This document shows, in pieces, positions 755 to 22,389 of a DNA stretch of 64,000 bases. The position numbers and the translations under genes were made by a program. The stretch is from assembly GCA_963799995.1 (NCBI GenBank), contig CAWCZI010000012.1:1964492-2028491 (forward strand). The letters run 5' to 3'. The notes beneath the pieces were generated by a model. It saw only the letters and a list, made by a program, of their open reading frames with translations, made no database searches and was not told the origin of the DNA. Origin of the DNA: an uncultured Solirubrobacterales bacterium (lineage in GTDB: Bacteria; Actinomycetota; Thermoleophilia; Solirubrobacterales; Solirubrobacteraceae). Position 1 is the first letter of the stretch, and each line of letters opens with the position of its first letter.

Positions 755-1998
755 TTACACGGCGCCGGCCACGTCGCCGAGCGCCCCTTCCAGCGCATCG
801 ACCAGCTCGTCGATGTCGGCGTCGGAGATGATCAGCGGCGGCGAGAAGGCCACGGCGTTGGCATATGGCAGCGCGCGCGCGATCACACCCCGGGCCAGGA
901 GCGCCTCGACCACCCCCGCGGCGACCACCGGTGCCGCCGGCACGACTGCCTGCATCAGCCCCTCGCCGCGCACGCCGGCAACCTCATCGCGGCCACGCAG
1001 CTTGTCGAGGCCGTCACGCAGCCGCCGCCCGGCTGCCCGGGCGCGCTCGGGCAGCTGCTCGCGCCGCAGAATCTCCAGATTGGCCAGGCCGGCCGCGCAG
1101 CAGGTCGGGTGGCCGGCGTACGTGCCGCCGTGCGTCAGCAGGTAGGCCTCGTCGGCTTCGAGCCACTGCCTCGGGCGCGGACCGACGACGACACCGCCGA
1201 GCGGCAGGTACCCGCTGGTCACCGCCTTGGCGAACGTCATCATGTCCGGCGCGACGCCGTAGTGGTGGCTGGCAAACCACGAGCCCAGGCGCCCGAACGC
1301 GGTGATCACCTCATCGAAGATGAGCAGCGCGCCGCACTCGTCGCACAGGTTCCTGAGCCCCTGCAGATAGCCGTCTGCGGGGGGAACACGCCGCCGGCCC
1401 CGATCACCGGCTCGGCGAGGATCGCCGCGATCCGCTCCGGCCCGTGGTAGGCGACGGCGTCGCGCATCGCCTGCAGGCTGTCGTGGGGCACCTGGTAGGT
1501 GTCAGGCAGCAGGGGCCCGAACGGCGTCCGGTTGGAGGGCAGGCCACCGACCGAGGTGCCTCCGACCATCACGCCGTGGTAGGCGTTGTGGCGGCTGAGG
1601 AAGATCGTGCGCCCGGCTTCACCGTTGGCACGGTGACTGGCGCGAGCCAGCTTGAGCGCGCTGTCGATCGCCTCTGACCCGCTGTTGGTGAACAGCACCC
1701 GCGCGCCGGCGATCGGCTCGAGCTCCATGAGCACGTCCGCCAGGCGCTGTGCCGCCGGGTTGGTGAAGCGCCCGAACGTGTGGTACGCCTCCAGCTCGAG
1801 CATCTGCGCGTGCACCGCGTCGATGATCTCCGTACGGCCGTGGCCGGCCGCGCAGTACCACAGCGAGGCGGTGCCGTCGAGGTAGGTTCGCCCCTCGGAG
1901 TCCCACAGACGGCAGCCCTCGGCCCGGACGACGTCCAGGAAGTCGGCGGCGGCCCGCGCCGGCGCCGCGAACGGGTGAAGCGCTCGCGGGACGCTCAT
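755..1998 (-). CDS. Class III PLP aminotransferase (omega-amine/putrescine transaminase-like); one gene split by a frameshift at the G6 run 1379-1384
   Basis: ORF 1306..1998 gives the N-half (DGTASLWYC, NSGSEA, YHG, AEPVIGAGG). ORF 755..1309 gives the C-half (DEVITAFGR, TFAKAVTSGY with the PLP Lys, GGTYAGHP). One added base restores GGVFPPADGYLQGLR. Confidence 0.88.
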
Positions 1999-2852
1999 CG
2001 GGCTGCCTGCCCCACTTCGCGCTCCGCCTCTTCCTCGGAGATCGCGAGCGCCACATGGAGCGTCTGTGCCGTCACCGCCGGCTGCTCGCCGACCGGCTCG
2101 AGCTCCTCGTCGGACTGCACGACGTGATTCTCCAGGCGTCCGATCCCCTCCACCTCCACCGTCACCGTGTCGCCCGGGTCGACGGGACGCGAGTTGGCGG
2201 GCGTTCCGGTCAGCAGGACGTCGCCCGGCTCGAGCGTGATCAGCCGCGCGAGGTCGGCGATCTGATACGCGAACGAGAACATGAGGTCGGTGCCGGTATG
2301 GCCCTCCTGGACCTGCTCGCCGTTGACGAAGGTCCGCAGTGTCAGGTCCTCGGGGTCGACGTCGGCCGCGTCGACCATCACCGGGCCCAGAGGGCAGAAG
2401 CCGTCCTGGCCCTTGACGCGCAGCATCGACCCGCGGTCGGCATGGCGGAAGTCGTGCACGCCCCAGTCGTTGGCGACGGTGTAGCCGCCCACGTAGTCAA
2501 GCGCGTCGGCGAGGCTCACGCCACGGCAGCGACGGCCGATCACGACCGCCACCTCGCCCTCGTAGTTGAGGAAGCGGCAGCCGGGCGGCCGGGTCACCGG
2601 TGCCAGGTGCGCCGACAGCGACGATGGTGGCTTCATGAAGTACGAAGGGGTCTGCGGGAGCCGCGACATCATGTACTCCTGCGCGCGCGAGCGGTAGGTC
2701 AGGTGCGTGGCGATGATCTTCCCCGGCGTCACCGGCGACAGCCACTCGCTGACTTCGGCGACGGGAATCTCAGCCGCGCCGGCGCGGATGCTGTCCCCGT
2801 CCAGGGTGCCCTCGACCGGCTGCCCGTGGTGCACGATGCGGACGTGTCTCAT
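1995..2852 (-). CDS. Fumarylacetoacetate hydrolase-family protein (HpaG-like), 285 aa
   Basis: True start MRHVRIVHHG at 2852 overlaps the upstream stop (ATGA). Motifs FMKPPSSL, YEGEV, GYTVAND, KGQDGFCPLGP, PGDVLLTGTP. Confidence 0.9.
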   Translation of the reverse strand: MRHVRIVHHGQPVEGTLDGDSIRAGAAEIPVAEVSEWLSPVTPGKIIATHLTYRSRAQEYMMSRLPQTPSYFMKPPSSLSAHLAPVTRPPGCRFLNYEGEVAVVIGRRCRGVSLADALDYVGGYTVANDWGVHDFRHADRGSMLRVKGQDGFCPLGPVMVDAADVDPEDLTLRTFVNGEQVQEGHTGTDLMFSFAYQIADLARLITLEPGDVLLTGTPANSRPVDPGDTVTVEVEGIGRLENHVVQSDEELEPVGEQPAVTAQTLHVALAISEEEAEREVGQAAR

Positions 2853-3655
2853 ATCTCGACCTCCTGGCGGTGCTGGGCGACGACGTCGACGCCGTCGACG
2901 GTGTAGCCGAATGTGAAGCGGTAGCCGCGGAGCATCTCGCGCGGGGCGATGGCCTGCAGGTCCTCGAGGGTGTCGTCGTAGAAGCGCAGCTCCGCGCTGC
3001 CCTCCCAGATCGGTGTGGCGTCGCGGTCGCGCCCGCCGGCTCGGACGAGCTCGAACACGGCGGGCCGCGGCCCATTGGCCGCCGGGAAGTGGCGGGTGTT
3101 GTGCATCGGCGGGTCGTTGACCGTCGGTCCCGTCTGCGACACGTGTTCGAGCGTGACGACCAGACGGGCGATCTGGCGGTCGTTGGCGGCGCAGGTGGCG
3201 CCGAACCGGGCGCCCTCGTGCAGCTTGGGGGTCGCCTTGCCGGCGGCGAACAGGCGGGTCATGTGGATCGACCCGAGCTTCTTGGGAAAGCCCTGGATCC
3301 ACCCGCGGTACATGGCGAAGTCCTTGTCGACCCAGATGTAGACGCACCGGCTCACCGGCTCTCCCCGGTACCGAGCGCCGACGACGATGAAGAACTCGCG
3401 GTACTGGGACTGGACCGGATCGATCAGCTCGTGCCCGTCGGCCGAACACGACTGCCAGTCGGCGAAGATGGCGGCGACCGCACCGGGATCCTCGGCGGGC
3501 TCGAGCTCGTCGGGCAGCAGCGCGGCGACAGCGGCCGGGTCCGTCCGGTACTCGGCGATCAGGAAGTCGCCCGAATAGTGCCACGGCGGCGGCGGGACGA
3601 GGCCGGCCCGACCGTCCGGTGACAGCGGCGCGGTGTAGCCGCGCAGCGGGGTCAT
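2849..3655 (-). CDS. Acetoacetate decarboxylase-family protein
   Basis: PPPWHY motif, YREF, and G(W)IQGFPKKLG carrying the Schiff-base Lys motif. Confidence 0.85.
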   Translation of the reverse strand: MTPLRGYTAPLSPDGRAGLVPPPPWHYSGDFLIAEYRTDPAAVAALLPDELEPAEDPGAVAAIFADWQSCSADGHELIDPVQSQYREFFIVVGARYRGEPVSRCVYIWVDKDFAMYRGWIQGFPKKLGSIHMTRLFAAGKATPKLHEGARFGATCAANDRQIARLVVTLEHVSQTGPTVNDPPMHNTRHFPAANGPRPAVFELVRAGGRDRDATPIWEGSAELRFYDDTLEDLQAIAPREMLRGYRFTFGYTVDGVDVVAQHRQEVEI

Positions 3656-6806: not shown

Positions 6807-7811
6807 TCAGCACGGGTTCCGACGAGCCCAGGCCAGGAAGTCGCGGGTTGCCTGCGGGGTACTGGCAAGCCGGCGTTCGCGCTGCTTGAGGGCGTGAGCG
6901 GTCTCCGAGCGGCTGAACACCCAGCCCAGCGTCTGAATCCGCCGCGCCATCAGGAACGTGGGCAGCTCGGCCGGCAACAGGTCGGGGAGCTCTCGAATCT
7001 GTCGGTAGCCGTCGACCAGGGCGTCCCGACGATCCCCCAGACTGCCAGTTCGGTCGTAGGGGTACAGGGCGACGGCGAACTCGTGCCCGTACCAGCTGTG
7101 TCCGCTGTCGTCGAAGTCGATGACGACGACCGCGCCGTCGTCGCAGACAAGGACGTTCTCGAACCCCAGGTCGCCGTGGATCAGCCCGAACCGATCCGGC
7201 CGTTCGCCGATCACATCCAGCCGCGCCCGGACCTCGGTCCGGCACGCCTCCAGCGCGGCCCGGTCATCCGCGGCGAACACGGAATGGGGGTCGGGCGGTC
7301 CCCACCGTGGATCGTCTCCCACCAGCGCCTCGGCGTCCCACGCGGGCCGCAAAAACCACGGGGGCGCCGCCCACGCGCGCGCGTGCGCGTGAATACGCGC
7401 CATTAATTCCCCCAGCCTCTCCCATGGCTTCACCTCGCTGACCGAACTCAGCGGTACGCCGTCGATCCACTCGAACAGCACCGCGGTGCGAGAGCAGCCC
7501 GGGCCGGCGGTCGCGGTCTGGAGCGGATCGCCATCGCATCCGGGCACCGCCGCGGCGGTCCGTACGCCGCTGCCCCGCAGGCTCTCCATCCACGCCAGCT
7601 CGGATCGAATCGCCGCGGCGGACTGGTATCCGGGCCGGTGAACGCGCAGGGCAAAGCGCCGTCCGTCCGGGGCGTGGATCCTGTACGTCGTGTTCTCGCC
7701 GTGGCGCACGAACGTGGCGCGGGCCTGTCCGCTGAACCCGAAGCGAGCCATCGCGTCGGCGACCAGAGCGGCCGGCAGCGGATCGCCGGCCACCTGGCCC
7801 GCCGACCTCAC
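6807..7811 (-). CDS. APH/choline-kinase-like phosphotransferase (amino-alcohol kinase type)
   Basis: ENTTYR, LRVHRPGY..AIRSELAWM, Brenner motif IHGDLGFENVL, IDFDDSG. GTGA overlap with the aminotransferase stop. Confidence 0.88.
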   Translation of the reverse strand: MRSAGQVAGDPLPAALVADAMARFGFSGQARATFVRHGENTTYRIHAPDGRRFALRVHRPGYQSAAAIRSELAWMESLRGSGVRTAAAVPGCDGDPLQTATAGPGCSRTAVLFEWIDGVPLSSVSEVKPWERLGELMARIHAHARAWAAPPWFLRPAWDAEALVGDDPRWGPPDPHSVFAADDRAALEACRTEVRARLDVIGERPDRFGLIHGDLGFENVLVCDDGAVVVIDFDDSGHSWYGHEFAVALYPYDRTGSLGDRRDALVDGYRQIRELPDLLPAELPTFLMARRIQTLGWVFSRSETAHALKQRERRLASTPQATRDFLAWARRNPC

Positions 7812-9115
7812 CGCGGGCTCTTGGCCCGCACGTGCCGGCTGGGGACGGGCCGGTCGACGTCCTTGGCGCGCTGCAGCGCGGCGTCGAGGCGCTCGAGCAC
7901 CGTGTCAGCGAGCGCATCCTCGAGCAGCAGGCCGGGCTTGAACTGCAGGACCGATTGGTCAAAGCCCGATGCGATCGCCCACACGCCGAGCTCGAACAGC
8001 TCCTGCTGCAGGTAGACGGCTCCGTCGGGGTGATCGACGCGCAGGCCGATCACGAGCCCGCTCTGGCGCACCTCGGTCAGGTACGGGTGGCGGTCGCGCA
8101 GCTCCGACAGGCCGCGGCCGACGTGCTCGATCAGGTGCGTGATCTGCGTCTGCACCGCGGGACGGGTCGTGATCTCCAGCACGCGCTCAGCAACCCGGCA
8201 GCCGATCTCGGCACCGCCGAAGGTCGAGACATGTCCCCAGCCGTTCTCGTGCAGCCACCCAGCGGCCCGCGCCGCGATCACCGTCGCCGCGATCGGATAC
8301 ATGCCGCCGGAGAGCCCCTTTGCGGTGACCAGGATGTCCGGCTGCACGCCGAAGGTCTCGACCCCCCACAAGCGCCCGGTGCGCCCCAGTCCCGTCTGCA
8401 CCTCATCGGCGATGTAGAGCGCCTCGTTCTCCTCGCACAGCGCCTTGACCGCGGGCAGATAACCGTCCGGCGGCACCGGGAAGCCATAGGTCGCCGGCAC
8501 CGTCTCTAGGAGCACCGCGGCCACGTCTCCCCTGGACATCTCGGCCGCGATCGCGTCGAGGTCGCCGAACGGCACCTTCGCGAACTGATCGGGCAGATCG
8601 GACAGGAAGTAGGCTGCCCCCGCGTCCTCGCCCGCGGCGCCCGAGAGTCCCGTGCGACCGTGGTATCCGGCGGCCAGCGTCACGATCCGCCGGCGCCCGG
8701 TCGCCCGCCGGGCGGTCTTGATGGCGACGTCGATCGCCTCGCTGCCCCCGGAGGCGAACACCGTGTACGCCAGGTCACCGGGGGTGAGCTCGGCCAGCCG
8801 GGCGGCCAGCTCGGCGCGAGCGGTGCTGGCGAAGTGGTGGTTTCCGATGTCCATCGTGGATGCGGCCGTGACCATCGCCTCCACAACCTCGGGGTTGCGA
8901 TGCCCGAGGTTGAAGGTGCCTCCGTTCAGGTGCAGGTCGATCAGCTCCCGGCCGTCGAGATCCCACAGCCGGTAGCCCTCGCGGCGGCCGATCACGAGCT
9001 GGGTGCCGAACGCCTCCCAGACGTCGACGCGGTGCGGGGCGACGTGCCGGCGGGTCAGCTCGAGCACGCGTTCCTTCTCGGATCCCCGGGCGCTCCCCGG
9101 GCCAGTGGAACTCAC
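7808..9115 (-). CDS. Class III PLP aminotransferase / putative phospho-lyase (AAU/RMM-like)
   Basis: HLNGGTFNLGHRNP, GGSEAID, YHGRTG, ETVPATYG, DEVQTGLGRTG, TAKGLSGG (PLP Lys), HVSTFGG. Confidence 0.9.
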   Translation of the reverse strand: MSSTGPGSARGSEKERVLELTRRHVAPHRVDVWEAFGTQLVIGRREGYRLWDLDGRELIDLHLNGGTFNLGHRNPEVVEAMVTAASTMDIGNHHFASTARAELAARLAELTPGDLAYTVFASGGSEAIDVAIKTARRATGRRRIVTLAAGYHGRTGLSGAAGEDAGAAYFLSDLPDQFAKVPFGDLDAIAAEMSRGDVAAVLLETVPATYGFPVPPDGYLPAVKALCEENEALYIADEVQTGLGRTGRLWGVETFGVQPDILVTAKGLSGGMYPIAATVIAARAAGWLHENGWGHVSTFGGAEIGCRVAERVLEITTRPAVQTQITHLIEHVGRGLSELRDRHPYLTEVRQSGLVIGLRVDHPDGAVYLQQELFELGVWAIASGFDQSVLQFKPGLLLEDALADTVLERLDAALQRAKDVDRPVPSRHVRAKSPR

Positions 9116-9885
9116 TCGTAGAACCCGTCCGGGGCCAACTTGAGCCGCTCGCGGTAGTCGAGATCGTGGGTGGCTATGAGCAGCGCGTCGTGCTCACGCT
9201 CGAGCGCCTCGATCCGCTCCCAGCTGGACACCATCGCATCCGGGCTCCACAGGACCGCCGGCAGCGCACGCTCGCGCATCTTGGCCAGCAGGTAGGTCGC
9301 GTCGGCGAGCAGGATGACCGTCTGTCCGCTGTCGAGCCTCACCATCAGCGACTGGTGCCCCCGGGAGTGACCGGGGGTGCTCAGCGCGACCAGGCGCCCG
9401 TCGCCGAAGATGTCGTGATCGCCGTCGAGCTGATGCCAGTCGAGCTCGTGCTCGAAGTCGGCGGCCACGTAGAGCAGGCGTTGGTACACCGGTGGCTGCC
9501 GCGCGAAGCTCAGCTCCTCGCGCTGCACCAGGACGGGTGCGTGGGTGAGCCACCCGAGGCCCCCGGCGTGGTCGAAGTGCAGGTGTGACTGGACCACGAT
9601 GTCGATGTCGGTGGGCTTCAGGCCGATGGTCGCCAGGCGCGCCTCGAGGTGGTCCTCGGAGCTCATCTGGACCTCGAACGACGCTGCCGCCGGCCCCAGC
9701 CGGGCCTCGGGATCGGTGCCCATCTGCGGGTGCACCCCGGTGTCGAACAGGACGTTGCCGCGCGGATGCGTGATGACGTACATGAAGTACGGGTTGTAGA
9801 CCTTCGTTCCCACGCGCTCGTCGAACGGGTCAAAGGCCGCCCAGTCCATCAGATCGCCGCCGCAGTGCAGCGCGTACAGCCTCAT
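9112..9885 (-). CDS. N-acyl-homoserine-lactonase-family metallo-beta-lactamase-fold hydrolase
   Basis: VLFDTG, SHLHFDHAGG (HxHxDH), TPGHSRGH, LADA; AiiA/AttM-like layout. Confidence 0.88.
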   Translation of the reverse strand: MRLYALHCGGDLMDWAAFDPFDERVGTKVYNPYFMYVITHPRGNVLFDTGVHPQMGTDPEARLGPAAASFEVQMSSEDHLEARLATIGLKPTDIDIVVQSHLHFDHAGGLGWLTHAPVLVQREELSFARQPPVYQRLLYVAADFEHELDWHQLDGDHDIFGDGRLVALSTPGHSRGHQSLMVRLDSGQTVILLADATYLLAKMRERALPAVLWSPDAMVSSWERIEALEREHDALLIATHDLDYRERLKLAPDGFYE

Positions 9886-11057
9886 CGTCGCACTCGCCCG
9901 CGGACCGCTTCGGCGGCGGCCTTCAGCGCCGAGCGCTCCGCGTCACTGAGGTTGAGCTCGACGATCTCGAGCACGCCGCCGCGACCCAGCACCGCGGGCA
10001 CCCCGAGGAACAGGTCCTCGATCCCGTATTCGCCCTGCAGATAGGCGGACACCGGGATCGCTCCGGCCTGGGCGCCGCGGATTGCCTGCAGCAGCTCGAT
10101 CGTCGCGTGGGCCGGCGCGACCGTGGCCGATCCAGTCCGGCGCAGGCTGACCACCGCGCCACCACCGGCGACGGTCTCACGGATGCACGCCTGGATTCGG
10201 TCAACGGGCAGCACGTCGACCAGCGGCCGGCCGCGGACGGTCGCGCCGGAGACGATCGGGACCATCTCGTCGCCGTGGCTGCCCAGCGTGATCGCCTCCA
10301 CGTCGAGCGGCTGGACCCCGGCGGCGGTGGCGATGGCGTTGCGAAAGCGGCTGGAGTCGAGCGTGGCGGCCATCCCGAGGACTCGCTCGGTGCCCAGCCC
10401 GCTCGCGCGCCACAGCTCATGGGTCATTTCGTCGAGAGGGTTGGTGACGACGATCACGACGGCGCTCGGGGCGAACTGCGCGATCGCCTCGCCGGCCCCT
10501 CTGATAACCGGGCCGTTGACCTGCATCATGGCGGCGCGATCCATGCCCGGGGTGCGGGGCCTGCCGGCGGTGACGACGACGACGTCGCAGCCTGCAATCA
10601 GGTCCAGCGTGGTTCCGCCGCGGGCCCGGGTCGGTGACCCGGTGATGCCCGACGCGTGCTCGATGTCGAGCGCGACCGACTCCGCGAGGCCGGGCACGAT
10701 GTCGATCAGGCAGATCTCATCCGCAAACCCGTCGATCGCGGCCAGATGAGCGGTGGTGGCCCCGACACCACCGGCGCCGATGAACCCCAGGCGCGTAAAG
10801 CGTGTGGGGGTCAGCCCGCGCGGCCTGTCGGATGCCACCCAGCGCGCGCCTCGGCGATACAGGCTGCGCCGGATCGCCCGGCCTGGATCCGCGCCGATCG
10901 GCGCCGGCTTCTCGAGCGGGCCGCGGACGATCTCCACGCCGAGGCGCTCGAGCGCATCGAGTGCCTGCGGCGTGACGATGTCGTCGTTGGCAACCACGAG
11001 CCGGCGCTGGCCGCGGCGAAATGCCTCGCGAACGTGCTCCTCGCCGACGACGTTCAT
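9882..11057 (-). CDS. mdh: LDH-like malate dehydrogenase with an N-terminal EutQ-N-like domain (about 85 extra aa)
   Basis: GAGGVG, LIDIV, TAGRPRTPGMDR (Arg at the malate-specificity position), VTNPLD, LDSSRF, GSHGD. N-terminus VREAFRRGQRRLVVANDDIVTPQALDALERLGVEI. Confidence 0.85.
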   Translation of the reverse strand: MNVVGEEHVREAFRRGQRRLVVANDDIVTPQALDALERLGVEIVRGPLEKPAPIGADPGRAIRRSLYRRGARWVASDRPRGLTPTRFTRLGFIGAGGVGATTAHLAAIDGFADEICLIDIVPGLAESVALDIEHASGITGSPTRARGGTTLDLIAGCDVVVVTAGRPRTPGMDRAAMMQVNGPVIRGAGEAIAQFAPSAVVIVVTNPLDEMTHELWRASGLGTERVLGMAATLDSSRFRNAIATAAGVQPLDVEAITLGSHGDEMVPIVSGATVRGRPLVDVLPVDRIQACIRETVAGGGAVVSLRRTGSATVAPAHATIELLQAIRGAQAGAIPVSAYLQGEYGIEDLFLGVPAVLGRGGVLEIVELNLSDAERSALKAAAEAVRGRVRR

Positions 11058-11665
11058 CAACGGCCTTCGAGGGCCTCCAGCGAGGACGCGGCGGTGTCGA
11101 TCGCCAGCCGTACGTCAGCTTCCGAGCCGGAGATGAACATCCGACCAAAGCGCCCCACGGTGCGCACCTCGACGATCTTGATCGTGGCCACCTTCTCGGC
11201 CTCGTTGGCCGCCGCGGCGATGTAGGCCGCGGGCCCGCACTCGAGAATCCCCAGGGTCTCGCCCGGCACGAGCAGCGATCCGCTGCGCCACTTGTTGAGC
11301 AGCTGCGCCTGGTAGGGCTCCACCGAGGTGATGATCTGGCTGGACTCGACGTTCGGGCGCCGGCGCTCGGTGAGGCTCATCCCGAGATGCGACAGGATCG
11401 CCTCGCGAGCGGCGCTCACCTCGGCGTTGGCGGGCGACCGCAGGATGAAGAAGCCAAATTCCCGCTCGACGATCTGCGAGGTCGCCTGGACGTCAGCCGC
11501 CTTCAGGGCGACGTCCACGACACGGAAGACCTCGTTGCCCGGACCGATCTCACCGACCAGGATGGTGTCGCCGGAGAGCGGAATCGAGCCCTGCACCGTG
11601 GCGCCGTTGTAGGCGGCGAACTGGGGCTGAAGCCGATCTATCTGCACCAGCGCGCGGAGGTCCAT
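11057..11665 (-). CDS. BMC shell protein, tandem-domain BMC-T (CcmP/CsoS1D-like double-stacking type)
   Basis: MDLRALVQIDRLQPQFAAY, EIGPG..VVDVALK, VEREFG, LECGPAAY...ANEAEK, GRFGRMFISGSEADV. Confidence 0.9.
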   Translation of the reverse strand: MDLRALVQIDRLQPQFAAYNGATVQGSIPLSGDTILVGEIGPGNEVFRVVDVALKAADVQATSQIVEREFGFFILRSPANAEVSAAREAILSHLGMSLTERRRPNVESSQIITSVEPYQAQLLNKWRSGSLLVPGETLGILECGPAAYIAAAANEAEKVATIKIVEVRTVGRFGRMFISGSEADVRLAIDTAASSLEALEGR

Positions 11666-11710
11666 CAGCTGTGCTCCGGGTAAAGGAGGTCCATCAGCTG
11701 GGCTCCGGGT
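11656..11710. repeat. 26-nt direct repeat (29-nt period) duplicating the AldDH stop / BMC-T start junction
   Basis: ggaggtccatcagctg(t/g)gctccgggt at 11656-11681 and 11685-11710. It creates the minus-strand mini-ORF MDLLYPEHS* (11694-11665). Confidence 0.85.
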
Positions 11711-13091
11711 CGAGGAGGTCGTTCAGCGACCGCCAGGGACGGGACTCGTAGGCGATCCGCTTGATGTTGATGAGATGAAGTGCGGTCACGTTGTCGGACA
11801 CGATCGATCCCGACCAGGTGCCGGTGCCGAGCATGAAGCTCGGGTCGATGTCACAGGAGAAGCCCATGCCGCCGTGCAGCGCCGGCGTGTTGACGAGCAC
11901 GCGGCCGGCAGGCAGGCGCGAGAATCGCGCCACGACGCTCGGATCGTCGGCGTGGACCACGGCGGTGTGGCCTTCGCCGCCGAAGCGCAGGACCTCGAGC
12001 GCCCGCTGCGCCCCCGCCTCGGCGTCGCCGACGTCGTAGAAGGCGAGGACCGGATCCAGCTTCTCGGCCGACAGGGGATCGCTGCGTCCCACGGTCTCGA
12101 GCTCCGCCAGCAGGACCCGCGTGCGGGGCGCCACATCGAAACCGGCCAGCTTGGCCAGGCGGGTCGCCGATTGCCCGACGTTCTCGACCTTCAAGCGAAG
12201 ATTGCGGTCGAACAGGACCTCCGCCAGGGACTCCGCCTGTCGCCTGGTGCACAGGTGGCCGCCCTGCTCGCGGATCGCGTGCCGCAGCCGCTCCGCGATC
12301 GGATGATCGGCGATCACGGCCTGCTCCGCGGCGCACGCCGTGCCGTAATCGAACGACTTGCTCGAGAGGATCATGTCCGCGACCTCGTCGAGGTCTCCCG
12401 CCTTGGAGCGATCGACGTAGACGGGAACGTTGCCGGGTCCGACCGCCAGCGTCGGCTTGCCCGAGGAGTAGGCCGCCCGCACCATCGCCGCGCCGCCGGT
12501 GGCCATCACCACGGCGATCCGGCGGTGGCTCATCAGCTCGCGCGTGCCGTCCAGGGTCGAGCCGTCCAGGCACTGGATCAGGCCCGGCGGCGCCCCCTCG
12601 TCCTCGGCGGCGTCGGCGAGGACGCGAGTTGTCTCGGCGCCGCAGTGGCGTCCCCGGGGATGCGGCGCGTGCACGATCGCGTTGCCGGCCTTCACCGCCG
12701 AGAGCGTCTTGAAGATGACGGTCGAGGTCGGATTGGTCACCGGGATCAGCGCGGCCACGACACCCATCGGCTCGCCGACCGCGATCACCTTGGTCGCCTC
12801 GTCGCGCCACAGCACGCCGAGGGTGCGGACGTTGCGCAACCAGTCCGACACCGCGATCGTGTTGAACAGGTTCTTGAGCGCTTTGTCGCCGGCGTTGCCG
12901 TACCCCGTCTCCTCAGCGGCGAGCTCGCCCAGGCGTGCCGCCTCGGGGGCGATCGCCCGCGCCATCGCCTCGACGACGCGATCGACGTCCGCCGGATCCC
13001 AGGTGCGGAACGTCAGCCAGGCCTCGTAGGCGCGGTCGGCCGCCCGCCGCGCCTGGGCGATCGAGTCCAGGTCGGGGTAGGCGAGCGTCAT
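11694..13091 (-). CDS. CoA-acylating aldehyde dehydrogenase (EutE/PduP/AdhE-N type), 465 aa
   Basis: Start MTLAYPDLD at 13091 (ATGA overlap). PVTNPTST, HAPHPRG, ATGGAAMVRAAYSSGKP, VGPGNVP, SKSFDYGTACAAEQ (catalytic Cys), EKLDPVL, GHTA. Confidence 0.92.
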   Translation of the reverse strand: MTLAYPDLDSIAQARRAADRAYEAWLTFRTWDPADVDRVVEAMARAIAPEAARLGELAAEETGYGNAGDKALKNLFNTIAVSDWLRNVRTLGVLWRDEATKVIAVGEPMGVVAALIPVTNPTSTVIFKTLSAVKAGNAIVHAPHPRGRHCGAETTRVLADAAEDEGAPPGLIQCLDGSTLDGTRELMSHRRIAVVMATGGAAMVRAAYSSGKPTLAVGPGNVPVYVDRSKAGDLDEVADMILSSKSFDYGTACAAEQAVIADHPIAERLRHAIREQGGHLCTRRQAESLAEVLFDRNLRLKVENVGQSATRLAKLAGFDVAPRTRVLLAELETVGRSDPLSAEKLDPVLAFYDVGDAEAGAQRALEVLRFGGEGHTAVVHADDPSVVARFSRLPAGRVLVNTPALHGGMGFSCDIDPSFMLGTGTWSGSIVSDNVTALHLINIKRIAYESRPWRSLNDLLDPEPS

Positions 13092-14190
13092 GCCAGCGCC
13101 TGCTCGAGCAGGGAGGCGTCGCCGCCGTCCAGGGCACGGCGGACGTCGTCGGGCCGGAAGCGGTCCAAACCAAGGCTCGGCAGGGTTCGCCCGTGCCGCG
13201 TGTAGTCGAGGCCTGCGAGGACCGAGCCGATATCGACGAGCGCAGCCGCGGTGCGAGTCGGGATGCCGGCCAGCGCGCCGGCGCTGATCGAGCGGCACCA
13301 GCGAGCAGCACAGCGCGTCGTGGACGCGGGGGTCGTCGCTCGCGAGCGCGGGACCGAGGTCCTCCTGCACCGGGGCCGGCGGGAGGTCGCGCACCCCGAA
13401 GGCAAACGCCACCCGGCGGCGCTCGTCGTCGATCCGCCGCGCGACCGACGCGAACTCGCGCAGCAGCGCCGGCGCGACGTCTCTGATTCCGGAGAGGTCC
13501 GAGAAGCTGGTCTCGAGCACACCGCGAGCGGGGATGAGCATCGGCAGCAGGGCCCGCAGCCGCTGCACCGCGTCCTCGGTGGCGCGGTTGGGCAGCGCCG
13601 CCGCGGGCACCTCCGCGCTCACGGCCGCGAGCGTGAGCGCACCCGGTTCAGAGGACTCGACCCGGTAGGGCGAAGCCGCCAGCTCGACGATCGTCGGAAG
13701 GTCCGGCGCAGGCGAAACGGCGCAGCGAGCGGGCGACCTCGACGGCCCCGAACGAGCGTCCTGGGACCAGCACCAGGAGCTGCTCGGGCCGCAGCCGGCC
13801 CGCCAGCAGGCCGCCGCAGGTGGCGTGGGCGATGCCGGGAGTCGCGACCAGGATCGCGTCGGCTTCGGTCACGGCGTCGTCGATCCCGGTTCTCAGGCCG
13901 ATCGCCGGCTGGGCGGATGGGCCGTCGGCCAGCCGGTAGGTGCCGACCAGATGCTCGCCCCGCACGGTCACCGCCCGCGGCGCGGCCAGCGCCGCGCGCT
14001 CGGGCTCGAATGCCGTGTGAAGCGTCACTTCGCACTCGGCCGCCAGACACTCGCAGGCCAGGGCCTGGCCCACCGGTCCGGCTCCCAGCACGGCGACGCG
14101 GCGCAGCGGGCGGCGCTCGGGCACCCCGGCCGCCGGCTTGACCTCGTTGAGGTCGGCCAGCAGCGCTTCGAATTCGCCGGCAGAGGTCAT
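13088..14190 (-). CDS. Opine (octopine/nopaline) dehydrogenase-like protein, frameshifted at about 13710 and 13291, apparently catalytically divergent
   Basis: Three frame segments: Rossmann VAVLGAGPVG...ADAILVATP...LVPGRSFGA; then PTIVELAASPY...LETSF...IDDERRRVA; then LVP..ISAGALAGIPT...GRTLPSLGL. This is the opine-DH domain order. Alternative start at 14211. Confidence 0.72.
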
Positions 14191-14215
14191 CCTCGCCGCC
14201 GACCGGGCCATGCGG

Positions 14216-14512
14216 CTACTCGCTGGCGGAGCCGGAGATCATCGAAGCGAGGTCGCCATGTGGCCGGGCGATGACATGGATCGACAGGACCTCGCCGACC
14301 TTGTTGGCGGCCACACCACCGGCGTCCGTCGCCGCCTTGACGGCGCCGACGTCGCCGCGGACGATCACCGTCACCAGGCCGCCGCCGACCCGCTCGTTCG
14401 TGACCAGCTCGACGTTCGCGGCCTTGACCATCGCGTCGGCGGCCTCCAGCGCTGGAACCAGGCCTCGAGTCTCGATCATCCCTAGCGCTACCTGCGGGGT
14501 TTCCGCCATCAC
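14216..14512 (-). CDS. BMC shell hexamer protein (BMC-H, EutM/PduA-like)
   Basis: [28 protein letters not shown]...[23 protein letters not shown]...HVIARPH. Confidence 0.96.
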
Positions 14513-14820
14513 TTGCTCCTTGTCTTGGTGGGCTGTTTGCGGCTCGACGTGCCGGCGTGCAGGTTGACGGCATCGACGATCGCGACGATCGTCAGGTCGG
14601 TGGCGGCCGCGCGCGACTGCGGCGGCTGCCGGGCCGCCGACCCGCGCGTGATCAGCACCTGATCACCGGGCCCGGCACCGACCGTGTCAACGGCGACCTC
14701 GGCCGGTCTGGCATCAGAACCGGCCGGGTCCAGCGGCTGGACGATCAACAGCTTGTGCGAGAGCAGGCTCTCGGTCTTCGCGGTCGCGGTCACCGAGCCG
14801 AGCACTTGCGCGAGCTCCAT
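14509..14820 (-). CDS. BMC vertex pentamer protein (BMC-P, EutN/CcmL family) with a basic C-terminal tail
   Basis: [48 protein letters not shown]. Confidence 0.95.
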
Positions 14821-14889: not shown

Positions 14890-14918
14890 GTGACCCGAGG
14901 GAATGCAAGGGCCGGGCA

Positions 14919-14970
14919 CCGGGAGGACAGCTGATGGCCGGGACCCGGGAGGAGAGCTGATGGCCGGGAC
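14919..14970 (+). repeat. 26-nt tandem duplication of RBS plus start codon
   Basis: ccgggagga(c/g)agctgatggccgggac x2. The first copy encodes MAGTREES*, whose TGA overlaps the real ATG (TGATG). Confidence 0.85.
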
Positions 14971-16105
14971 GAGCGATGCGGTCGTGATCGGAGCCGGCAT
15001 CGCCGGAGCCTCGGCGGCGCTCGCGCTGCGCAGGCGTGGGCTCGACGTCACGCTGATCGATGCACGGGAGCCCGGACACGCGCGCGCAGCCTCCGCCGGA
15101 GATCACCGCATCCTGCGCGCCAGCCACGGGTCGGATCAGCTGTACACCCGCTGGAGCCGGGAGGCGCGTCTGCGCTGGATGGAGCTCGGAGCCGAGGTCG
15201 GCCAGGAGCTGTTCGTCCAGAGCGGAGCGGTCATGCTCGCCAAGGCCGGACACACGCAATGGGAGGACGCCTCCCGCGACACCCTCGCCCGGCTGGGGGT
15301 TCCGAGCTTCGTGGTCGACGTGGACGAGCTGCGCCTGCGCCTGCCGCTGATCGACCCGCGCGGCCTGGCGTACGGCCTGTGGGAGCCCGAATCCGGATTC
15401 GTGTACGCGCGGCGAGCCGTCCAGGCGACGGTCCGGCTGTTCGTCGAGATGGGCGGGGTTCTGCGGCGCGGCGTGGGCGGCACCGACGAGCGTGAGCGTC
15501 CCCTGGTCGACGGCCGGCCGATCGAAGCGGGCGTCATCGTCTTCGCCTGCGGCGCCTGGATGGGCCGGCTCTTTCGCCGCACCCTGGGGCAGCTGCTCGA
15601 CATCGTCCGCCAGGATGTGATGATGGTCGAGCCACCACCCGGGGCGACCGGCTATGACGCCGACAGCTTCCCGGCCTGGATCGATCATGGGTATCCCGCC
15701 TACGGGATACCGGCGTCCGGCGGCTACGGCTTCAAGGCGGTGCTCAACTGGCGCGGCATCACGCTCGACATAGACCGCGATGACCGCTTGATCTCCCCCA
15801 CGTCGGTGGCCCGCACGCGGCGCTATCTGGCTCATCGCTTTCCCGCGCTGGCCAACGCGCCGATCGTCGGCCAGGAGGTGGGCCAGATCGCCAACACCAC
15901 CGACACCCACTTCCTGATCGACCACCACCCCGCGCACGACCGCCTCGTGCTCGTGGCCGGCGACTCGGGACACCTGTTCAAGCATGGTCCCGTGGTCGGT
16001 GACCACATCGCCGCGCTCGCGCTTAACGAGATCGACCCCGAGCCGCGTTTCAGCCTCGGCAAGCGCCCCGCCGTGGCGGTCACGTCGGCCGACCGCCCGC
16101 AGTAG
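14960..16105 (+). CDS. FAD-dependent amine oxidoreductase (monomeric sarcosine oxidase/DAAO family), 381 aa
   Basis: AVVIGAGIAG, ASAGDHRILR, FACGAW, TTDTHFLIDHHP, AGDSGHLFKHGPVVG. Confidence 0.88.
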   Translation: MAGTSDAVVIGAGIAGASAALALRRRGLDVTLIDAREPGHARAASAGDHRILRASHGSDQLYTRWSREARLRWMELGAEVGQELFVQSGAVMLAKAGHTQWEDASRDTLARLGVPSFVVDVDELRLRLPLIDPRGLAYGLWEPESGFVYARRAVQATVRLFVEMGGVLRRGVGGTDERERPLVDGRPIEAGVIVFACGAWMGRLFRRTLGQLLDIVRQDVMMVEPPPGATGYDADSFPAWIDHGYPAYGIPASGGYGFKAVLNWRGITLDIDRDDRLISPTSVARTRRYLAHRFPALANAPIVGQEVGQIANTTDTHFLIDHHPAHDRLVLVAGDSGHLFKHGPVVGDHIAALALNEIDPEPRFSLGKRPAVAVTSADRPQ

Positions 16106-16941: not shown

Positions 16942-18351
16942 TCAGAACTGAAACGGGCGGTCGATGCCGGCCAGCGAGACGCCGGTGAATGCCGACGCTT
17001 CGAGCGTCAGCGCGCGGAGGTCCTCGGGCTCGAGGTTGTGCACCGATGACTTGCCGCACGCCTTGGCCAGCAGCGTGGCCTCCATCGTCATCGCGGTCAG
17101 CAGACGCAAGGTTCGCTCCGCGCCGGCCTCGACATCCATCCGCTCCTCGAGCTCGGGGTCCTGGGTGGTGATCCCGACCGGGCAGCGACCGGTATGGCAG
17201 TGATGACAGGAGCCGGGAGCGGTCCCGAGGGCGGCGTAGTCGTCGACGTAGCGCGGCGAATTACAACCGAGCCCGATCAGCGCCGCGGTCGCGATCATCG
17301 CGCAGTCGGCGCCGAGGGCGAGCGCCTTGGCGACGTCGACCCCGGAGCGGATGCCGCCGGAGACGACGAGCTTCACCTTGTCGGCCATCCCGCAGTCCTC
17401 GAGCGCGCGGCGCGCGGCGGGGATTGCGGAGATCAACGGCACCCCGGTGTGGTCCAGCAGCATCTCGGGCGAGGCGCCGGTCGAGCCCTCCATCCCGTCG
17501 AGCACGATCACGTCGGCACCGGTCTTGGCCGCCACCGCCACGTCGTAGTAGGGACGCGTCGCCCCGAGCTTGATGAAGATCGGGACGCGGTAGCCGGTGG
17601 CGTCGCGCAGCTCCTCGATCTTGATCTGCAGATCGTCGGCGCCGAGGAAGTCTGGATGGCGGACGGTCGCTCGCTGGTCCACTCCGAGCGGAAGCGAGCG
17701 CATGCGGGCGACTCGCTCGGAGACCTTCATGCCCAGCAGCAGCCCGCCGGTACCGGGCTTGGCGCCCTGCCCCACCACGACCTCGATCCCGTCGGCGCGG
17801 CGCAGATGGTCGAGGTCGAGCATGTAGCGCGACGGGGTCAGCTGGTACACGAGCGTCTGCGACTCCGCGCGCTCGTCCTCGAGCATGCCGCCCTCGCCCG
17901 TGCAGGTCATCGTGCCGGCCCGCGAGGCACCCCGGCCGAGCGCGGCCTTGGCGCTCGCCGACAGCGCGCCGAAGCTCATCGACGCGATGTAGATCGGGAT
18001 CTCGAGCTCGATCGGCTCCTCCACCAGTCCCAGCCCATCTCCCAGAACCGTTTTCGTGTCGCATTTCTCGCGGTAGCCCTCCAGCGGCAGCCGCGTCATC
18101 GTCGCCGGCTGGAAGACGAGATCGTCGAAGCTGGGCAGCTGGCGCTGGAAGGTGGAGAAGCCGCGGATCTGATAGCGCCCGAGCTGTGCCTTGGCGTGAA
18201 TGTCGGCGATCGCCGCCGGCGTCCACCGCGACGAGCCGCCGCGGGTGTAGGACCGGGCCACCCCCGCCGGCCGGCCGGCCTGCGCTCCGTCGGAGAACGC
18301 CGCCGGGTCCTCTTCGGGGTGGCCGTTGGCGCCGTTCAGATCATCAGCCAT
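16942..18351 (-). CDS. glxD: FMN-binding glutamate synthase-family subunit (GlxD / N-methylglutamate synthase MgsC-like)
   Basis: MSFGALS, TGEGG, GQGAKPGTGG, DGMEGSTGA, SGGIRSGVDVAKALALGAD, CHHCHTGRCPVGITTQDP. Start at MADDLNG. Confidence 0.85.
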   Translation of the reverse strand: MADDLNGANGHPEEDPAAFSDGAQAGRPAGVARSYTRGGSSRWTPAAIADIHAKAQLGRYQIRGFSTFQRQLPSFDDLVFQPATMTRLPLEGYREKCDTKTVLGDGLGLVEEPIELEIPIYIASMSFGALSASAKAALGRGASRAGTMTCTGEGGMLEDERAESQTLVYQLTPSRYMLDLDHLRRADGIEVVVGQGAKPGTGGLLLGMKVSERVARMRSLPLGVDQRATVRHPDFLGADDLQIKIEELRDATGYRVPIFIKLGATRPYYDVAVAAKTGADVIVLDGMEGSTGASPEMLLDHTGVPLISAIPAARRALEDCGMADKVKLVVSGGIRSGVDVAKALALGADCAMIATAALIGLGCNSPRYVDDYAALGTAPGSCHHCHTGRCPVGITTQDPELEERMDVEAGAERTLRLLTAMTMEATLLAKACGKSSVHNLEPEDLRALTLEASAFTGVSLAGIDRPFQF

Positions 18352-19016
18352 TGCTGCGCATCCCTTGACTCGAAGTGCCACAGCGCCTGCGCGGAGACGA
18401 TGCGCTGCCACGTCTGCCCCTCATCGCCGATGCCGAGGCCGGCGAGCAGCGCCCACACCTCCGCGACCTCGTCGGCCGGCGGCTCCTCGATCCGTGCGTC
18501 GACACCGAGACCGCCGATCGTGCCGGCGACCCAGATCTCCCCCTCCCACAGCGAGTCACCCGCGGCATCGGCGGTGTCACCGAGGCAGATCACCCGCCCC
18601 CCGTGGGCCATGAAGCCGCAGGCATGGCCGAGCGAGCCCTCGACCACGATCACCCCGCCCTTCATCGCCACGCCGCAGCGCGGACCGGCGTTGCCGCGCA
18701 CGTGGATCGTGCCTCCGCGGATCGACGCGCCGACGCTCATCGCGGCGTTGCCCTGCACGGTGATGTGCCCGCTGGCCATCGCCTCCCCGACGCCCCAGCC
18801 GGCATTGCGGGTGATCGTGATGCCGGCACCGTTGTTGAGGCCGCCGCAGTAATAGCCCACCGAGCCTTCGAACGTCACCTCGCCCCCTGGCGGCAACGCA
18901 ACGCCGAGATTGTGACGTGAGAGCGGCTCGGTCACGCGCACGTGCTCGCCGGCGGCGACGGCCGCCCGGATCTCCTCGTTGACCTCCCGCAGGGGACGAT
19001 CCCCGGCTCGGATCAC
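18336..19016 (-). CDS. glxC: GXGXG-domain subunit (GlxC / MgsB-like)
   Basis: Repeated GxxxG beta-helix (GSVGYYCGG, GNAGPRCG, GFMAHGG); flanked by glxB and glxD homologues. Confidence 0.85.
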   Translation of the reverse strand: MIRAGDRPLREVNEEIRAAVAAGEHVRVTEPLSRHNLGVALPPGGEVTFEGSVGYYCGGLNNGAGITITRNAGWGVGEAMASGHITVQGNAAMSVGASIRGGTIHVRGNAGPRCGVAMKGGVIVVEGSLGHACGFMAHGGRVICLGDTADAAGDSLWEGEIWVAGTIGGLGVDARIEEPPADEVAEVWALLAGLGIGDEGQTWQRIVSAQALWHFESRDAQQWLMI

Positions 19017-19963
19017 GCGGCCGCCCCCACCGCCACCGGCGAGCGGACGGACCAGATGCGAACGATCGACGGACCGTCGTGGACCTCTACGTCGACCTCG
19101 TCGACGTAGAGCGTGCGCAGCGCCTGCTCCTCGGTGGCGACGGCGACGCCATCGGGTCCGATCACCGCGACGACCGGCTTGATCGCCCAGCGATCCTTGG
19201 CCAGTGCGATCCCGTCGGGGGTGGCCAGCAGATATGTGAAGACGCCGTCGAGCTCGCTCAGGCTGCGCTCGAGCGACTCCTGAAGCGAATCGCCGGCCGC
19301 CATCCGCACCGAGTTCCAGACCGCGATCAGCTCGCTGTCGTTCTCGGTCGTGAAGCGGTATCCCTGCCGCTGCAGGCGCCGCCGCCAGGTGTAGTAATTG
19401 GTCAGCTGCCCGTTGTGGACGATCGCCACGTCGGGAAACGGCCGCGCCCAGAACGGATGGCCCGCGACCGGTGACACATTCGACTCCGTGGCCAGACGAA
19501 CGTGACCGAGGCCATGCGTCCCGATGAACTCCTCCACCCCGTGCTTGGATGCCACCTCGCCGGCGTCGCCGACGTCCTTGACGATCTCCAACGCGCGCCC
19601 GGCCGACTGAAGCTCGACCCGGTCAAGCGCGTCGCAGGCGTCGACCCAGGCTGAGAACGGCTTGGGATCGGAGACCACGAGCCTCGCCAGCACATGCCGT
19701 TGGCCGCTCTGGTCCCAGGTCGGCTCCTGCACGAAGTCCGCGCCGTGCTCGCGAGTGACGCCGCGCAGAGCCTCGAGATCCTGATCCAGGTGACCGCGGT
19801 CGGCAAGGAGCGCGCGCACGACGAACGCATCCTCGCGCGGCGTTCCATACAGCGCGAACCCAGTGCTGTCCCACCCCCGGTGACGCTGCGCGGCCATCAT
19901 CGCCGTCAGGTCGGCGCCGAGACGGCCCGGCTCATTCAGCGTCCGGCCTGCGATCCCGCACAT
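19013..19963 (-). CDS. glxB: Class II glutamine amidotransferase subunit (GlxB / MgsA-like)
   Basis: N-terminal MCGIAG, HRGWDSTG, GHVRLATES, HPF, VHNGQLTNY, NDSELI. Confidence 0.87.
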   Translation of the reverse strand: MCGIAGRTLNEPGRLGADLTAMMAAQRHRGWDSTGFALYGTPREDAFVVRALLADRGHLDQDLEALRGVTREHGADFVQEPTWDQSGQRHVLARLVVSDPKPFSAWVDACDALDRVELQSAGRALEIVKDVGDAGEVASKHGVEEFIGTHGLGHVRLATESNVSPVAGHPFWARPFPDVAIVHNGQLTNYYTWRRRLQRQGYRFTTENDSELIAVWNSVRMAAGDSLQESLERSLSELDGVFTYLLATPDGIALAKDRWAIKPVVAVIGPDGVAVATEEQALRTLYVDEVDVEVHDGPSIVRIWSVRSPVAVGAAA

Positions 19964-21292: not shown

Positions 21293-22389
21293 TTAGTAGA
21301 CGATGACGCTGCGGGCTGTCTCCCCCGCCTGCATGCGCGCGAACGCATCGTTGACTTCGTCCAGCCCGCAGGTGGTGATAAGGGGTGCGAGGCGCAGCCG
21401 GCCGTCGCGGTAGAGGTCGACGAGGAGGGGGATGTCGCGCAGCGGCACGCAGGAGCCATACCAGGAGCCGCGCACGCACCTTTCCTCCAGGGTGGTCGTC
21501 AGCGCGTCCAGTGCCACCCGGGTCTCGGGTGAGGCCATACCGATCAGAACCGCCTGGCCGCCGCGGCTGGTCAGCGCCACCGCGGTGTCGATCGTGTCCG
21601 GACGTCCCAGCGCCTCGAAGGCGTGGTCGACGCCACCTCCGAGCAGCTCGGTGACGGCCTCGACGGGGTCGCACTCGGCGGCGTTCACGACCGCGGTCGC
21701 GCCCAGCTCGCGAGCCAGCTCGAGCTTGGCGGCGACGACGTCGACCGCCACGATCGTGCTCGCGCCCGCGATCCGTGCCCCCTGCACGACGTTGAGGCCG
21801 ACACCCCCGCACCCGACCACCGCCACGGAGTCGCCGGGGCGCACGTGCGCGGTGTTGATGGCCGCTCCCACCCCGGTCATGACGGCGCAGCCCATCAACG
21901 CGAGCTCGGTCAGCGGAAGGCCGGGATCGACCTTCACCGCCGTCCGCGCCGGCACCACCGAGCACTCGGCGAACGAGGACGTGTTGTAGTGATGAACCGG
22001 CTCCCCGTCACGGCTGAAAGCGGCACGTCCCGTCCTCCATCGTCGCGTCGTACCAGGCCGTGTTCTCGCAGATGTTCGGCCGCCCGCGCGCGCATTGGCG
22101 GCAGTGCCCGCAGTAGGGAAGCCAGGTCAGCAGGACATGGTCGCCCGGACGCAGGCCGACCACGCCCGGACCGACCTGCTCCACCACGCCCGCTCCCTCG
22201 TGGCCGAGGACGACCGGGAGCGAGGTCGGATGGATCGCCCTGGGCGACGTGAAGGTCGGAGTGGCAGACGCCGCTGGCCGCCATGCGAATCAGCACCTCG
22301 CCCGTCTTGGGCGGATCGAGCTCGAGGTCCTCGATCACGAGCGGCTGCCCGAATTCGTGCAGGACGGCGGCCCGTATCGGCGTCGACAT
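21293..22389 (-). CDS. Zn-dependent alcohol dehydrogenase (class III/aryl-alcohol type), two +1 frameshifts (about 22238 and 22019)
   Basis: ASGVCHSDLH, then (shifted) GHEGAG...CGHCRQC...C, then GCAVMTGVG, GCGGVG, GSWYG. The net frame change matches two single-base insertions. Confidence 0.85.

Follow-up and report, generated by a model that had tools for sequence, protein, structure and literature searches.

The MIC2 type of bacterial microcompartment (BMC) has been catalogued with a '6-phosphogluconate dehydrogenase-like' (IPR008927) protein that carries a predicted encapsulation peptide of ~10 amino acids (Sutter et al. 2021, Nat Commun 12:3809). Its description also lists an aldehyde dehydrogenase (AldDH) that lacks such a peptide, a pfam02866 dehydrogenase extended at its N terminus by ~70 amino acids, and a pfam00120 glutamine synthetase (Sutter et al. 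2021, Supplementary Data 2). MIC2 is an 'incomplete core' type to which no aldehyde-producing signature enzyme is assigned, and its NAD+ regeneration is still called undetermined in the literature. The locus described here lies in a 64,000-nucleotide stretch of DNA (the window) from an uncultured Solirubrobacterales bacterium (assembly GCA_963799995.1, contig CAWCZI010000012.1, positions 1,964,492 to 2,028,491 of the forward strand). Its microcompartment operon contains a gene on the minus strand (13088..14211) for a putative peptide-bearing protein, hereafter the cargo protein, which as assembled is spread over three reading frames. Pfam and NCBIfam searches find a peptide-less AldDH and an extended pfam02866 dehydrogenase in the same operon and, judged by this gene content, the locus matches the MIC2 type.

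Once two single bases are removed from the assembled gene, the protein it encodes is, on sequence profiles and a predicted structure, a member of the opine dehydrogenase family, in which a different conserved set has replaced the canonical active-site residues. The MIC2 catalogue is silent on both the relationship and the replacement. Literature searches joining 'opine dehydrogenase' with 'bacterial microcompartment', or microcompartments with the N-methylglutamate pathway, found nothing. As far as found, three points are new: the relationship to CENDH, the opine dehydrogenase of Arthrobacter sp. 1C; the family-wide replacement of residues; and the constant association with genes for N-alkyl amino acid metabolism. 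The initial annotation of the window, made from the letters alone, knew of no characterised microcompartment carrying this fold. That holds for the link to CENDH, whereas the MIC2 type itself and the presence of a cargo protein with a predicted targeting peptide were already in the 2021 catalogue.

Fold and active site of the cargo protein

A phmmer search with the repaired protein returned a single significant relative of solved structure, CENDH (1bg6, E=4e-21), and a profile built from 22 family members matched the same structure with E=4e-58 over residues 6-358. The AlphaFold model of an intact homologue that is 85% identical (P0001; predicted local distance difference test (pLDDT) 89, predicted template-modelling score 0.87) has the expected two-domain fold, with a Rossmann domain, a C-terminal helical domain and a cleft between them. 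Its best Foldseek match is again 1bg6 (E=7e-26, TM 0.80/0.83, root-mean-square deviation 2.4 A), followed by octopine dehydrogenase (3iqd/3c7d), ketopantoate reductases and staphylopine-type dehydrogenases. These matches bear out the Rossmann fold and opine-dehydrogenase C-terminal domain that had been recognised by eye. The repaired protein gives no match to the Pfam model Octopine_DH (PF02317) at E<=0.01; its sole Pfam match is a weak one, to F420_oxidored in the Rossmann part, and a scan of NCBIfam matched no family model. Sister clades at 40-51% identity do carry precomputed PF02317 matches. The Octopine_DH model and NCBIfam fail to recognise the protein, so that its database copies mostly lack a name.

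The glycine-rich dinucleotide-binding motif GAGPVG (residues 43-48; 14068..14085, minus strand) is retained. G43 and G45 are invariant in all clades, and G48 is glycine in the Actinobacteria and alanine in the Alphaproteobacteria. Loss of the motif in the Alphaproteobacterial clade ('LGGxxDA') was considered and rejected, as this sequence reads as a GxGxxA variant.

The active site is altered throughout. In HMMER alignments to 1bg6, CENDH His202 falls on Asp244 (codon GAC, 13479..13481, minus strand), Arg292 on Pro294, with Arg295 adjacent, and Asp297 on Ala299 (codon GCG, 13314..13316, minus strand); Asp298 aligns with CENDH Glu296. Two further positions, K156 and R143, are S198 and E185 in the window protein. 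The alignment given in the initial annotation (His to Asp, Asp to Ala) was therefore correct, and the dyad is not intact. In a curated alignment of 22 canonical members, K156, H202 and R292 are each present in 22/22 and D297 in 21/22, the R143 position is R or K in 22/22, and Y280 and Y293 are found in 19/22 and 18/22. All seven are replaced in each of the three microcompartment-linked groups. A broader comparison gives the same picture: relatives without the N-terminal extension (n=110) have H in 97, R in 94 and D in 92 at the three catalytic columns, while those with it (n=60) have H in 5, R in 11 and D in 14. The catalytic His/Arg/Asp set is thus kept in 84-100% of non-BMC relatives, and replaced in nearly all of the tabulated BMC-linked homologues, from both the Actinobacteria and the Alphaproteobacteria. 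By these alignments, the replacement is a property of the family and not a lesion of the window copy.

The altered positions show a conservation of their own. At N196, Asp occurs in 31/31, 10/17 and 124/124 members of the three BMC-linked groups, the third of which is Alphaproteobacterial; at H202, the same groups have Asp/Glu in 31/31, Asn in 9/17 and Glu/Asp in 124/124. Eight residues are newly conserved (E71, R84, D111, D238, R274, D298, S303 and R357), and six of these (E71, R84, D111, R274, S303 and R357) are conserved across both phyla and not in canonical enzymes. Residues that are invariant among canonical members (>=82% conserved) are kept at 68-80% in the N-terminal domain and at 36-59% in the C-terminal domain. 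The strong conservation of the new acidic pair argues against plain decay and for a site that has been remodelled. Since the canonical residues are replaced by a different conserved set, the protein is almost certainly not an ordinary opine dehydrogenase. The statement in the initial annotation that the catalytic residues are lost was right about the canonical set but too simple, as a different conserved constellation stands in its place.

That the protein is an ordinary opine dehydrogenase whose residues only seem to be missing through misalignment is highly improbable. A conserved Arg does directly follow the R292 position, and a conserved Asp directly precedes that of D297, which makes a register shift conceivable. 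However, the Arg-to-Asp spacing is 2, not 4, so that one shift cannot bring both back; three independent alignments (by phmmer, by profile hmmsearch and by MAFFT, the last in two runs) agree on the change of His202 to Asp; K156, R143 and the FY.EG.TP motif are absent too; and neither PF02317 nor any NCBIfam model gives a match.

In canonical enzymes, the replaced residues handle the carboxylates of the keto acid and the amino acid and take part in catalysis. H212 of octopine dehydrogenase binds the pyruvate carbonyl as well as the carboxylate of the amino acid, and a CENDH variant evolved in the laboratory for a non-carboxylated ketone and butylamine carries A111M/K156T/N198H/Y259M/Y280L/R292V/Y293H, all in the cleft (PMC6033044). 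Five of these positions (K156, N198, Y280, R292 and Y293) are also changed in the natural microcompartment clade. The pocket may therefore no longer bind carboxylates, and the carboxylate-binding pocket appears to have been rebuilt systematically in more than 170 sequences from two phyla.

The protein begins with a short helix, SAGEFEALLADLNEV (14140..14184, minus strand), joined to the Rossmann domain by a flexible Pro/Ala-rich linker, KPAAGVPERRPLR (14101..14139, minus strand). In the P0001 model the helix spans residues 4-15 and is followed by a stretch with pLDDT<50 and then by the first Rossmann strand. A helix with an invariant phenylalanine (F14) and a variable Pro/Ala-rich linker is found in the Actinobacterial clades and in the large Alphaproteobacterial clade, that is, in all BMC-linked clades, whereas canonical non-BMC relatives lack the extension and start at the first strand. 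The gene for the extended form lies between those for BMC-H and AldDH in 11/11 inspected loci, and one canonical homologue, which lacks the extension, lies in surroundings without BMC genes, adjoining a peptide-type ABC transporter. No comparable terminal helix was found in the other proteins of the operon. The hydrophobic moment of the window helix is 0.29 against a shuffle mean of 0.22, which is not significant (p=0.27); the same test on the Alphaproteobacterial peptide gives p=0.026. The prediction that the helix is an encapsulation peptide thus rests on its conservation, on the predicted helix and linker, and on the published interpretation.

Reading frames and assembly errors

As assembled, the gene runs through frame A (14211..13712), frame B (13710..13289) and frame C (13287..13088), all on the minus strand. 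Frame A reads MARSAARMTSAGEFEALLADLNEVKPAAGVPERRPLRRVAVLGAGPVGQ (also written MARSAARMTSAGEFEALLADLNEV-KPAAGVPERRP-...VAVLGAGPVGQ...RSLRRFA) and holds the helix EFEALLADLNEV, the Pro/Ala linker and GAGPVG. Frame B reads APDLPTIVELAASPY...SFSDLSGIRDVAP...HDALCCSLVPL, and frame C reads ..SAGALAGIPTRT...GRTLPSLGL...LLEQALA followed by the stop. The two frameshifts joined in the initial annotation are single extra bases. One, at 13711, leads from frame A to frame B and is a GC to GCC change, at a place where relatives read ...RRFAAPxLP...; the other, at 13288, leads from frame B to frame C and creates a GATC, where relatives read ...SLVPLVSAG.... Deleting both plus-strand bases leaves an uninterrupted open reading frame (ORF) of 1122 nt encoding 373 amino acids, and the correct frames contain neither stop codons nor any other lesion. 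Homologues begin at the ATG at 14190 (the second methionine, MTSAGEF), which is therefore the probable start. These homologues (n=31, 68-85% identity) are read in one frame and have 362-387 residues, mostly 366.

Several observations bear on whether the extra bases are real. Contigs of ~95% identity from four independent short-read runs, at least one of them with Illumina adapters present, all lack bases 13288 and 13711 and have no further indel inside the gene. Compared with five relatives, the ratio of nonsynonymous to synonymous substitution (dN/dS) is 0.17-0.27 overall, and 0.11-0.21, 0.18-0.50 and 0.08-0.21 in the three frame segments. These low values in all three indicate that selection continues to act on the gene beyond each shift. 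Elsewhere in the window, four other genes contain at least five additional frameshifts, counted by tblastn of syntenic proteins (a frame plot of GC content at third codon positions was too noisy). The split genes are all on the minus strand, include housekeeping-type enzymes, and encode a zinc alcohol dehydrogenase (21296-22386, two shifts), a cytochrome P450 (22402-23803), a second class-III aminotransferase (755-1998) and a glutamine-synthetase-like protein (44205-45498). Three of the seven frameshift sites in the window fall at GATC (binomial P~0.014), one of them abutting a C5 run, and a fourth falls in a C7 run. Nanopore consensus errors typically fall at methylation motifs and homopolymers, and the pattern over the seven sites resembles that of systematic errors in a long-read consensus. 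The closest genomes, Solirubrobacterales metagenome-assembled genomes from Microflora Danica (MFD), are presumably long-read assemblies, and split genes are found in several of their loci too.

Because relatives lack both bases, selection persists and other genes of the window are similarly hit, both frameshifts in the cargo gene are most likely assembly or long-read consensus errors. The gene is best explained not as a decaying relic but as one whose assembly carries indel errors, and decay through inactivating frameshifts, which had been named as a way in which the initial annotation could fail, is unlikely. Counting against this explanation, the window's own reads were sought among sequencing runs and not found, the best-matching run containing 31% of sampled words, so that the frameshifts are checked only against relatives of ~95% identity. 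A recent, strain-specific pseudogene, with both insertions genuine and the family functional elsewhere, would account for two frame-breaking single-base insertions in the assembled sequence, only one of which lies at GATC, the other being a simple GC to GCC change. We consider this unlikely. Purifying selection extends over all three segments, the correct frames are otherwise clean, exactly these two bases are missing in every related dataset, similar shifts affect four unrelated genes within 64 kb, and split genes are many in sister assemblies from the same kind of project. Programmed frameshifting was also considered and rejected, as both extra bases are absent from relatives and there is no conserved slippery context.

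Two further observations concern split or fused genes in such assemblies. In one sister assembly of this locus (L002, ENA ERZ25039489) the AldDH is fused to BMC-T, the lactate dehydrogenase is split in two and a second AldDH in three, and a reverse-transcriptase gene lies inside a glutamate-synthase-like gene; this can illustrate how error-prone such assemblies are. In the window, an ORF of 529 amino acids (1995-3655, minus strand) contains an acetoacetate-decarboxylase-like gene (2849-3655) and then a fumarylacetoacetate-hydrolase domain in another frame, and represents either two overlapping genes or another frameshifted fusion.

Operon context and possible function

The operon is transcribed from the minus strand. 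Its first gene encodes the pentameric shell protein BMC-P (EutN/CcmL; 14509..14820), followed by the hexameric shell protein BMC-H (14216..14512), both identified by Pfam and synteny. After the cargo gene come an acylating, EutE-like AldDH without an N-terminal targeting peptide (11694..13091), a double-permuted shell protein of the BMC-T class (CcmP/CsoS1D-like; 11057..11665), and a malate/lactate dehydrogenase (MDH/LDH)-family protein with a conserved N-terminal extension of ~90 amino acids (9882..11060). This core order is shared by the window, eight Actinobacterial loci and two Alphaproteobacterial loci, and is kept even where the cargo proteins are only 39-48% identical. A short contig (P0040) has genes for glutamine synthetase, EutN, BMC-H, the cargo protein and AldDH before it is interrupted. 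Divergent from the operon lies a gene for a FAD oxidase of the monomeric sarcosine / N-methyl-tryptophan oxidase type (14903..16105, plus strand). Beyond it are an N-methylglutamate-synthase-like trio (GATase_6, GXGXG, Glu_synthase; 16942-19963, minus strand), a GntR regulator and RidA. In both phyla (including loci L012 and L013), the oxidase gene and the trio lie next to the operon. These flanking genes suggest that MIC2 could serve amine catabolism via N-alkyl or gamma-glutamyl intermediates.

The initial annotation had left the choice between new chemistry and a pseudo-enzyme or scaffold undecided; the present evidence leans moderately to new chemistry. An active, re-purposed oxidoreductase of amine or imine chemistry is favoured over a non-catalytic adaptor, and we give it roughly an even chance of being correct. 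The N-terminal helix would dock the protein to the shell, and the protein would bind NAD(H) in the lumen. Its substrate may be a non-carboxylated, cationic amine, iminium or amino-carbonyl compound, on which it would act as a secondary-amine dehydrogenase or reductive aminase, not as an opine synthase. The reaction would be redox-coupled to the neighbouring acylating AldDH. In the reductive direction it would consume NADH made by AldDH, and in the oxidative direction it would act within the shell on an N-alkyl amino acid and free an aldehyde.

A number of observations weigh against an active enzyme. The residue at the H202 position varies by clade (D, E or N, rarely H, A, L, R or G), which is unusual for an essential catalytic residue, and Thr/Ser occupies the end of beta-2, where an acidic residue usually binds the NAD ribose. 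The shortened segment seen in the initial annotation was confirmed: the Solirubrobacterales clade lacks ~50 residues of the C-terminal domain present in CENDH and in the sister clades, ~20 after the His-helix and ~30 before the R/D helix, including the FY.EG.TP motif. The cargo gene is the fastest-evolving of the core genes, with 39-48% identity between its products against 69-73% for AldDH, 76-80% for BMC-T and 60-67% for the MDH-family protein; this rapid change fits an adaptor as well as an enzyme. The MDH-family enzyme could already recycle NAD+ and the adjacent flavin oxidase could already cleave N-alkyl amino acids, so that neither role strictly requires the cargo protein.

The rival explanation is a pseudo-enzyme scaffold, possibly still NAD(H)-binding, whose helix binds the shell and whose body carries the peptide-less AldDH, and perhaps the MDH-like enzyme, into the lumen. 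Each of the points just listed, apart from the change at beta-2, can be read in its favour: tolerance of the deletion in one clade, rapid evolution, the varying H202 position and the coverage of both roles by other enzymes. To these are added the replacement of all canonical substrate and catalytic residues, and a dN/dS that is highest in the middle, cleft-forming segment (0.18-0.50). The cargo protein is also the sole protein of the operon with an N-terminal helix and linker, the catalogue gives the MIC2 AldDH no encapsulation peptide, and the stop codon of the cargo gene (TGA, 13090..13088) overlaps the start of the AldDH gene (ATG, 13091..13089) in the sequence ATGA, suggesting coupled translation. 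However, the glycine-rich motif and most N-domain invariants are retained over two phyla, and the acidic residues at N196 (D) and H202 (D/E), present in all 124 Alphaproteobacterial members, look like a specific ligand site. In addition, the conserved C-terminal tail of AldDH might be a targeting signal of its own. An adaptor is thus a possible explanation, but not the one we prefer.

A narrower version of the re-purposed oxidoreductase would make the cargo protein the missing MIC2 signature enzyme, a secondary-amine dehydrogenase that uses NAD+ to cleave an N-alkyl amino acid within the shell and passes the aldehyde to AldDH for conversion to acyl-CoA. This amino acid would come from the cytosol, where the glutamine-synthetase-like and N-methylglutamate-synthase-like enzymes encoded nearby would synthesise it. 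We put this forward as a speculative proposal that is probably wrong. If true, MIC2 would be an organelle for alkylamine or amino-alcohol catabolism, and the cargo protein a natural counterpart of the laboratory-evolved CENDH reductive aminases. More generally, the question of the MIC2 signature enzyme and of NAD+ regeneration gains a concrete and testable lead. If active, the protein would be a natural reductive aminase on an opine-dehydrogenase scaffold, which would make it interesting for biocatalysis. An inactive protein would instead be a metabolosome cargo adaptor derived from an enzyme, of which we know of no described example.

Other features of the locus were noted. The extension of the MDH-family protein contains a motif (..DDIVTPQALDALERLGVEIV..GPLEKPAP) common to Actinobacteria and Alphaproteobacteria, and its catalytic part matches an NCBIfam malate dehydrogenase subfamily above the cut-off; this protein could be a lumenal NAD+ recycler. 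The C-terminal tail of AldDH (11694-11745, minus strand) reads RPWRSLxDLL in Actinobacteria and RPWRD[IV]Y[ED]EYG in Alphaproteobacteria, and might be an unrecognised targeting or assembly signal. Fused large and medium subunits of a B12-type diol/glycerol dehydratase (28734-30983, plus strand; Pfam E=1.6e-242 and 2e-28) lie ~14 kb from the operon, which recalls RMM2 loci, where an amino-alcohol microcompartment is paired with diol dehydratase genes. Two soil libraries of RNA type contain short contigs of 95-99% identity at 12631-12841, 12855-13033, 13104-13256 and 14233-14459, covering parts of AldDH, the C-terminal part of the cargo protein and BMC-H. As DNA carry-over is possible, these contigs hint weakly at transcription of close relatives in soil and were not used as evidence.

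Comparison with known systems

Adaptors with enzyme folds are known from beta-carboxysomes, where CcmN and CcmM serve this function and one of the two has an encapsulation peptide. The likeness to the cargo protein lies in an enzyme-like fold with a terminal shell-binding helix that recruits peptide-less partners, and is one of analogy only. The folds of CcmN and CcmM are unrelated to that of the cargo protein, and the CcmN peptide is C-terminal.

Imine reductases and reductive aminases belong to the same broad superfamily as the cargo protein, with a Rossmann domain and a 6PGDH-C-like helical domain. In imine reductases (IREDs) the ancestral Lys is replaced by Asp or Tyr. The cargo protein is not a sequence member of the IRED family, and the likeness is mechanistic only.

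Within MIC2, the cargo protein is 30-36% identical to the Alphaproteobacterial members and has the same short, predicted N-terminal helical targeting peptide. One MIC2 carrier in culture is Aliishimia ponticola. Unlike catalogued MIC2 loci, the window and the other Solirubrobacterales loci have no pfam00120-type gene adjoining the operon. The only glutamine-synthetase-like gene in the window is the frameshifted one at 44205-45498, ~30 kb away; the Alphaproteobacterial loci and the P0040 contig do have such a gene. The Solirubrobacterales version alone adds three genes downstream on the minus strand, as in RMM1/AAUM loci. These encode a lactonase-like hydrolase of the metallo-beta-lactamase fold (9112-9885), a class-III aminotransferase-family protein (7808-9115) and an APH-family kinase (6807-7811), the latter two forming a pair familiar from RMM1/AAUM.

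The closest enzyme of known structure remains CENDH, with ~26% identity (P0001 model) and the same Rossmann and helical domains. The two proteins share GxGxxG, P84, P109-G110, E134, E240-R241, LVP and G338-R339. Unlike CENDH, the cargo protein has an additional N-terminal helix and linker, and its gene lies in a microcompartment operon instead of an opine/peptide uptake cluster.

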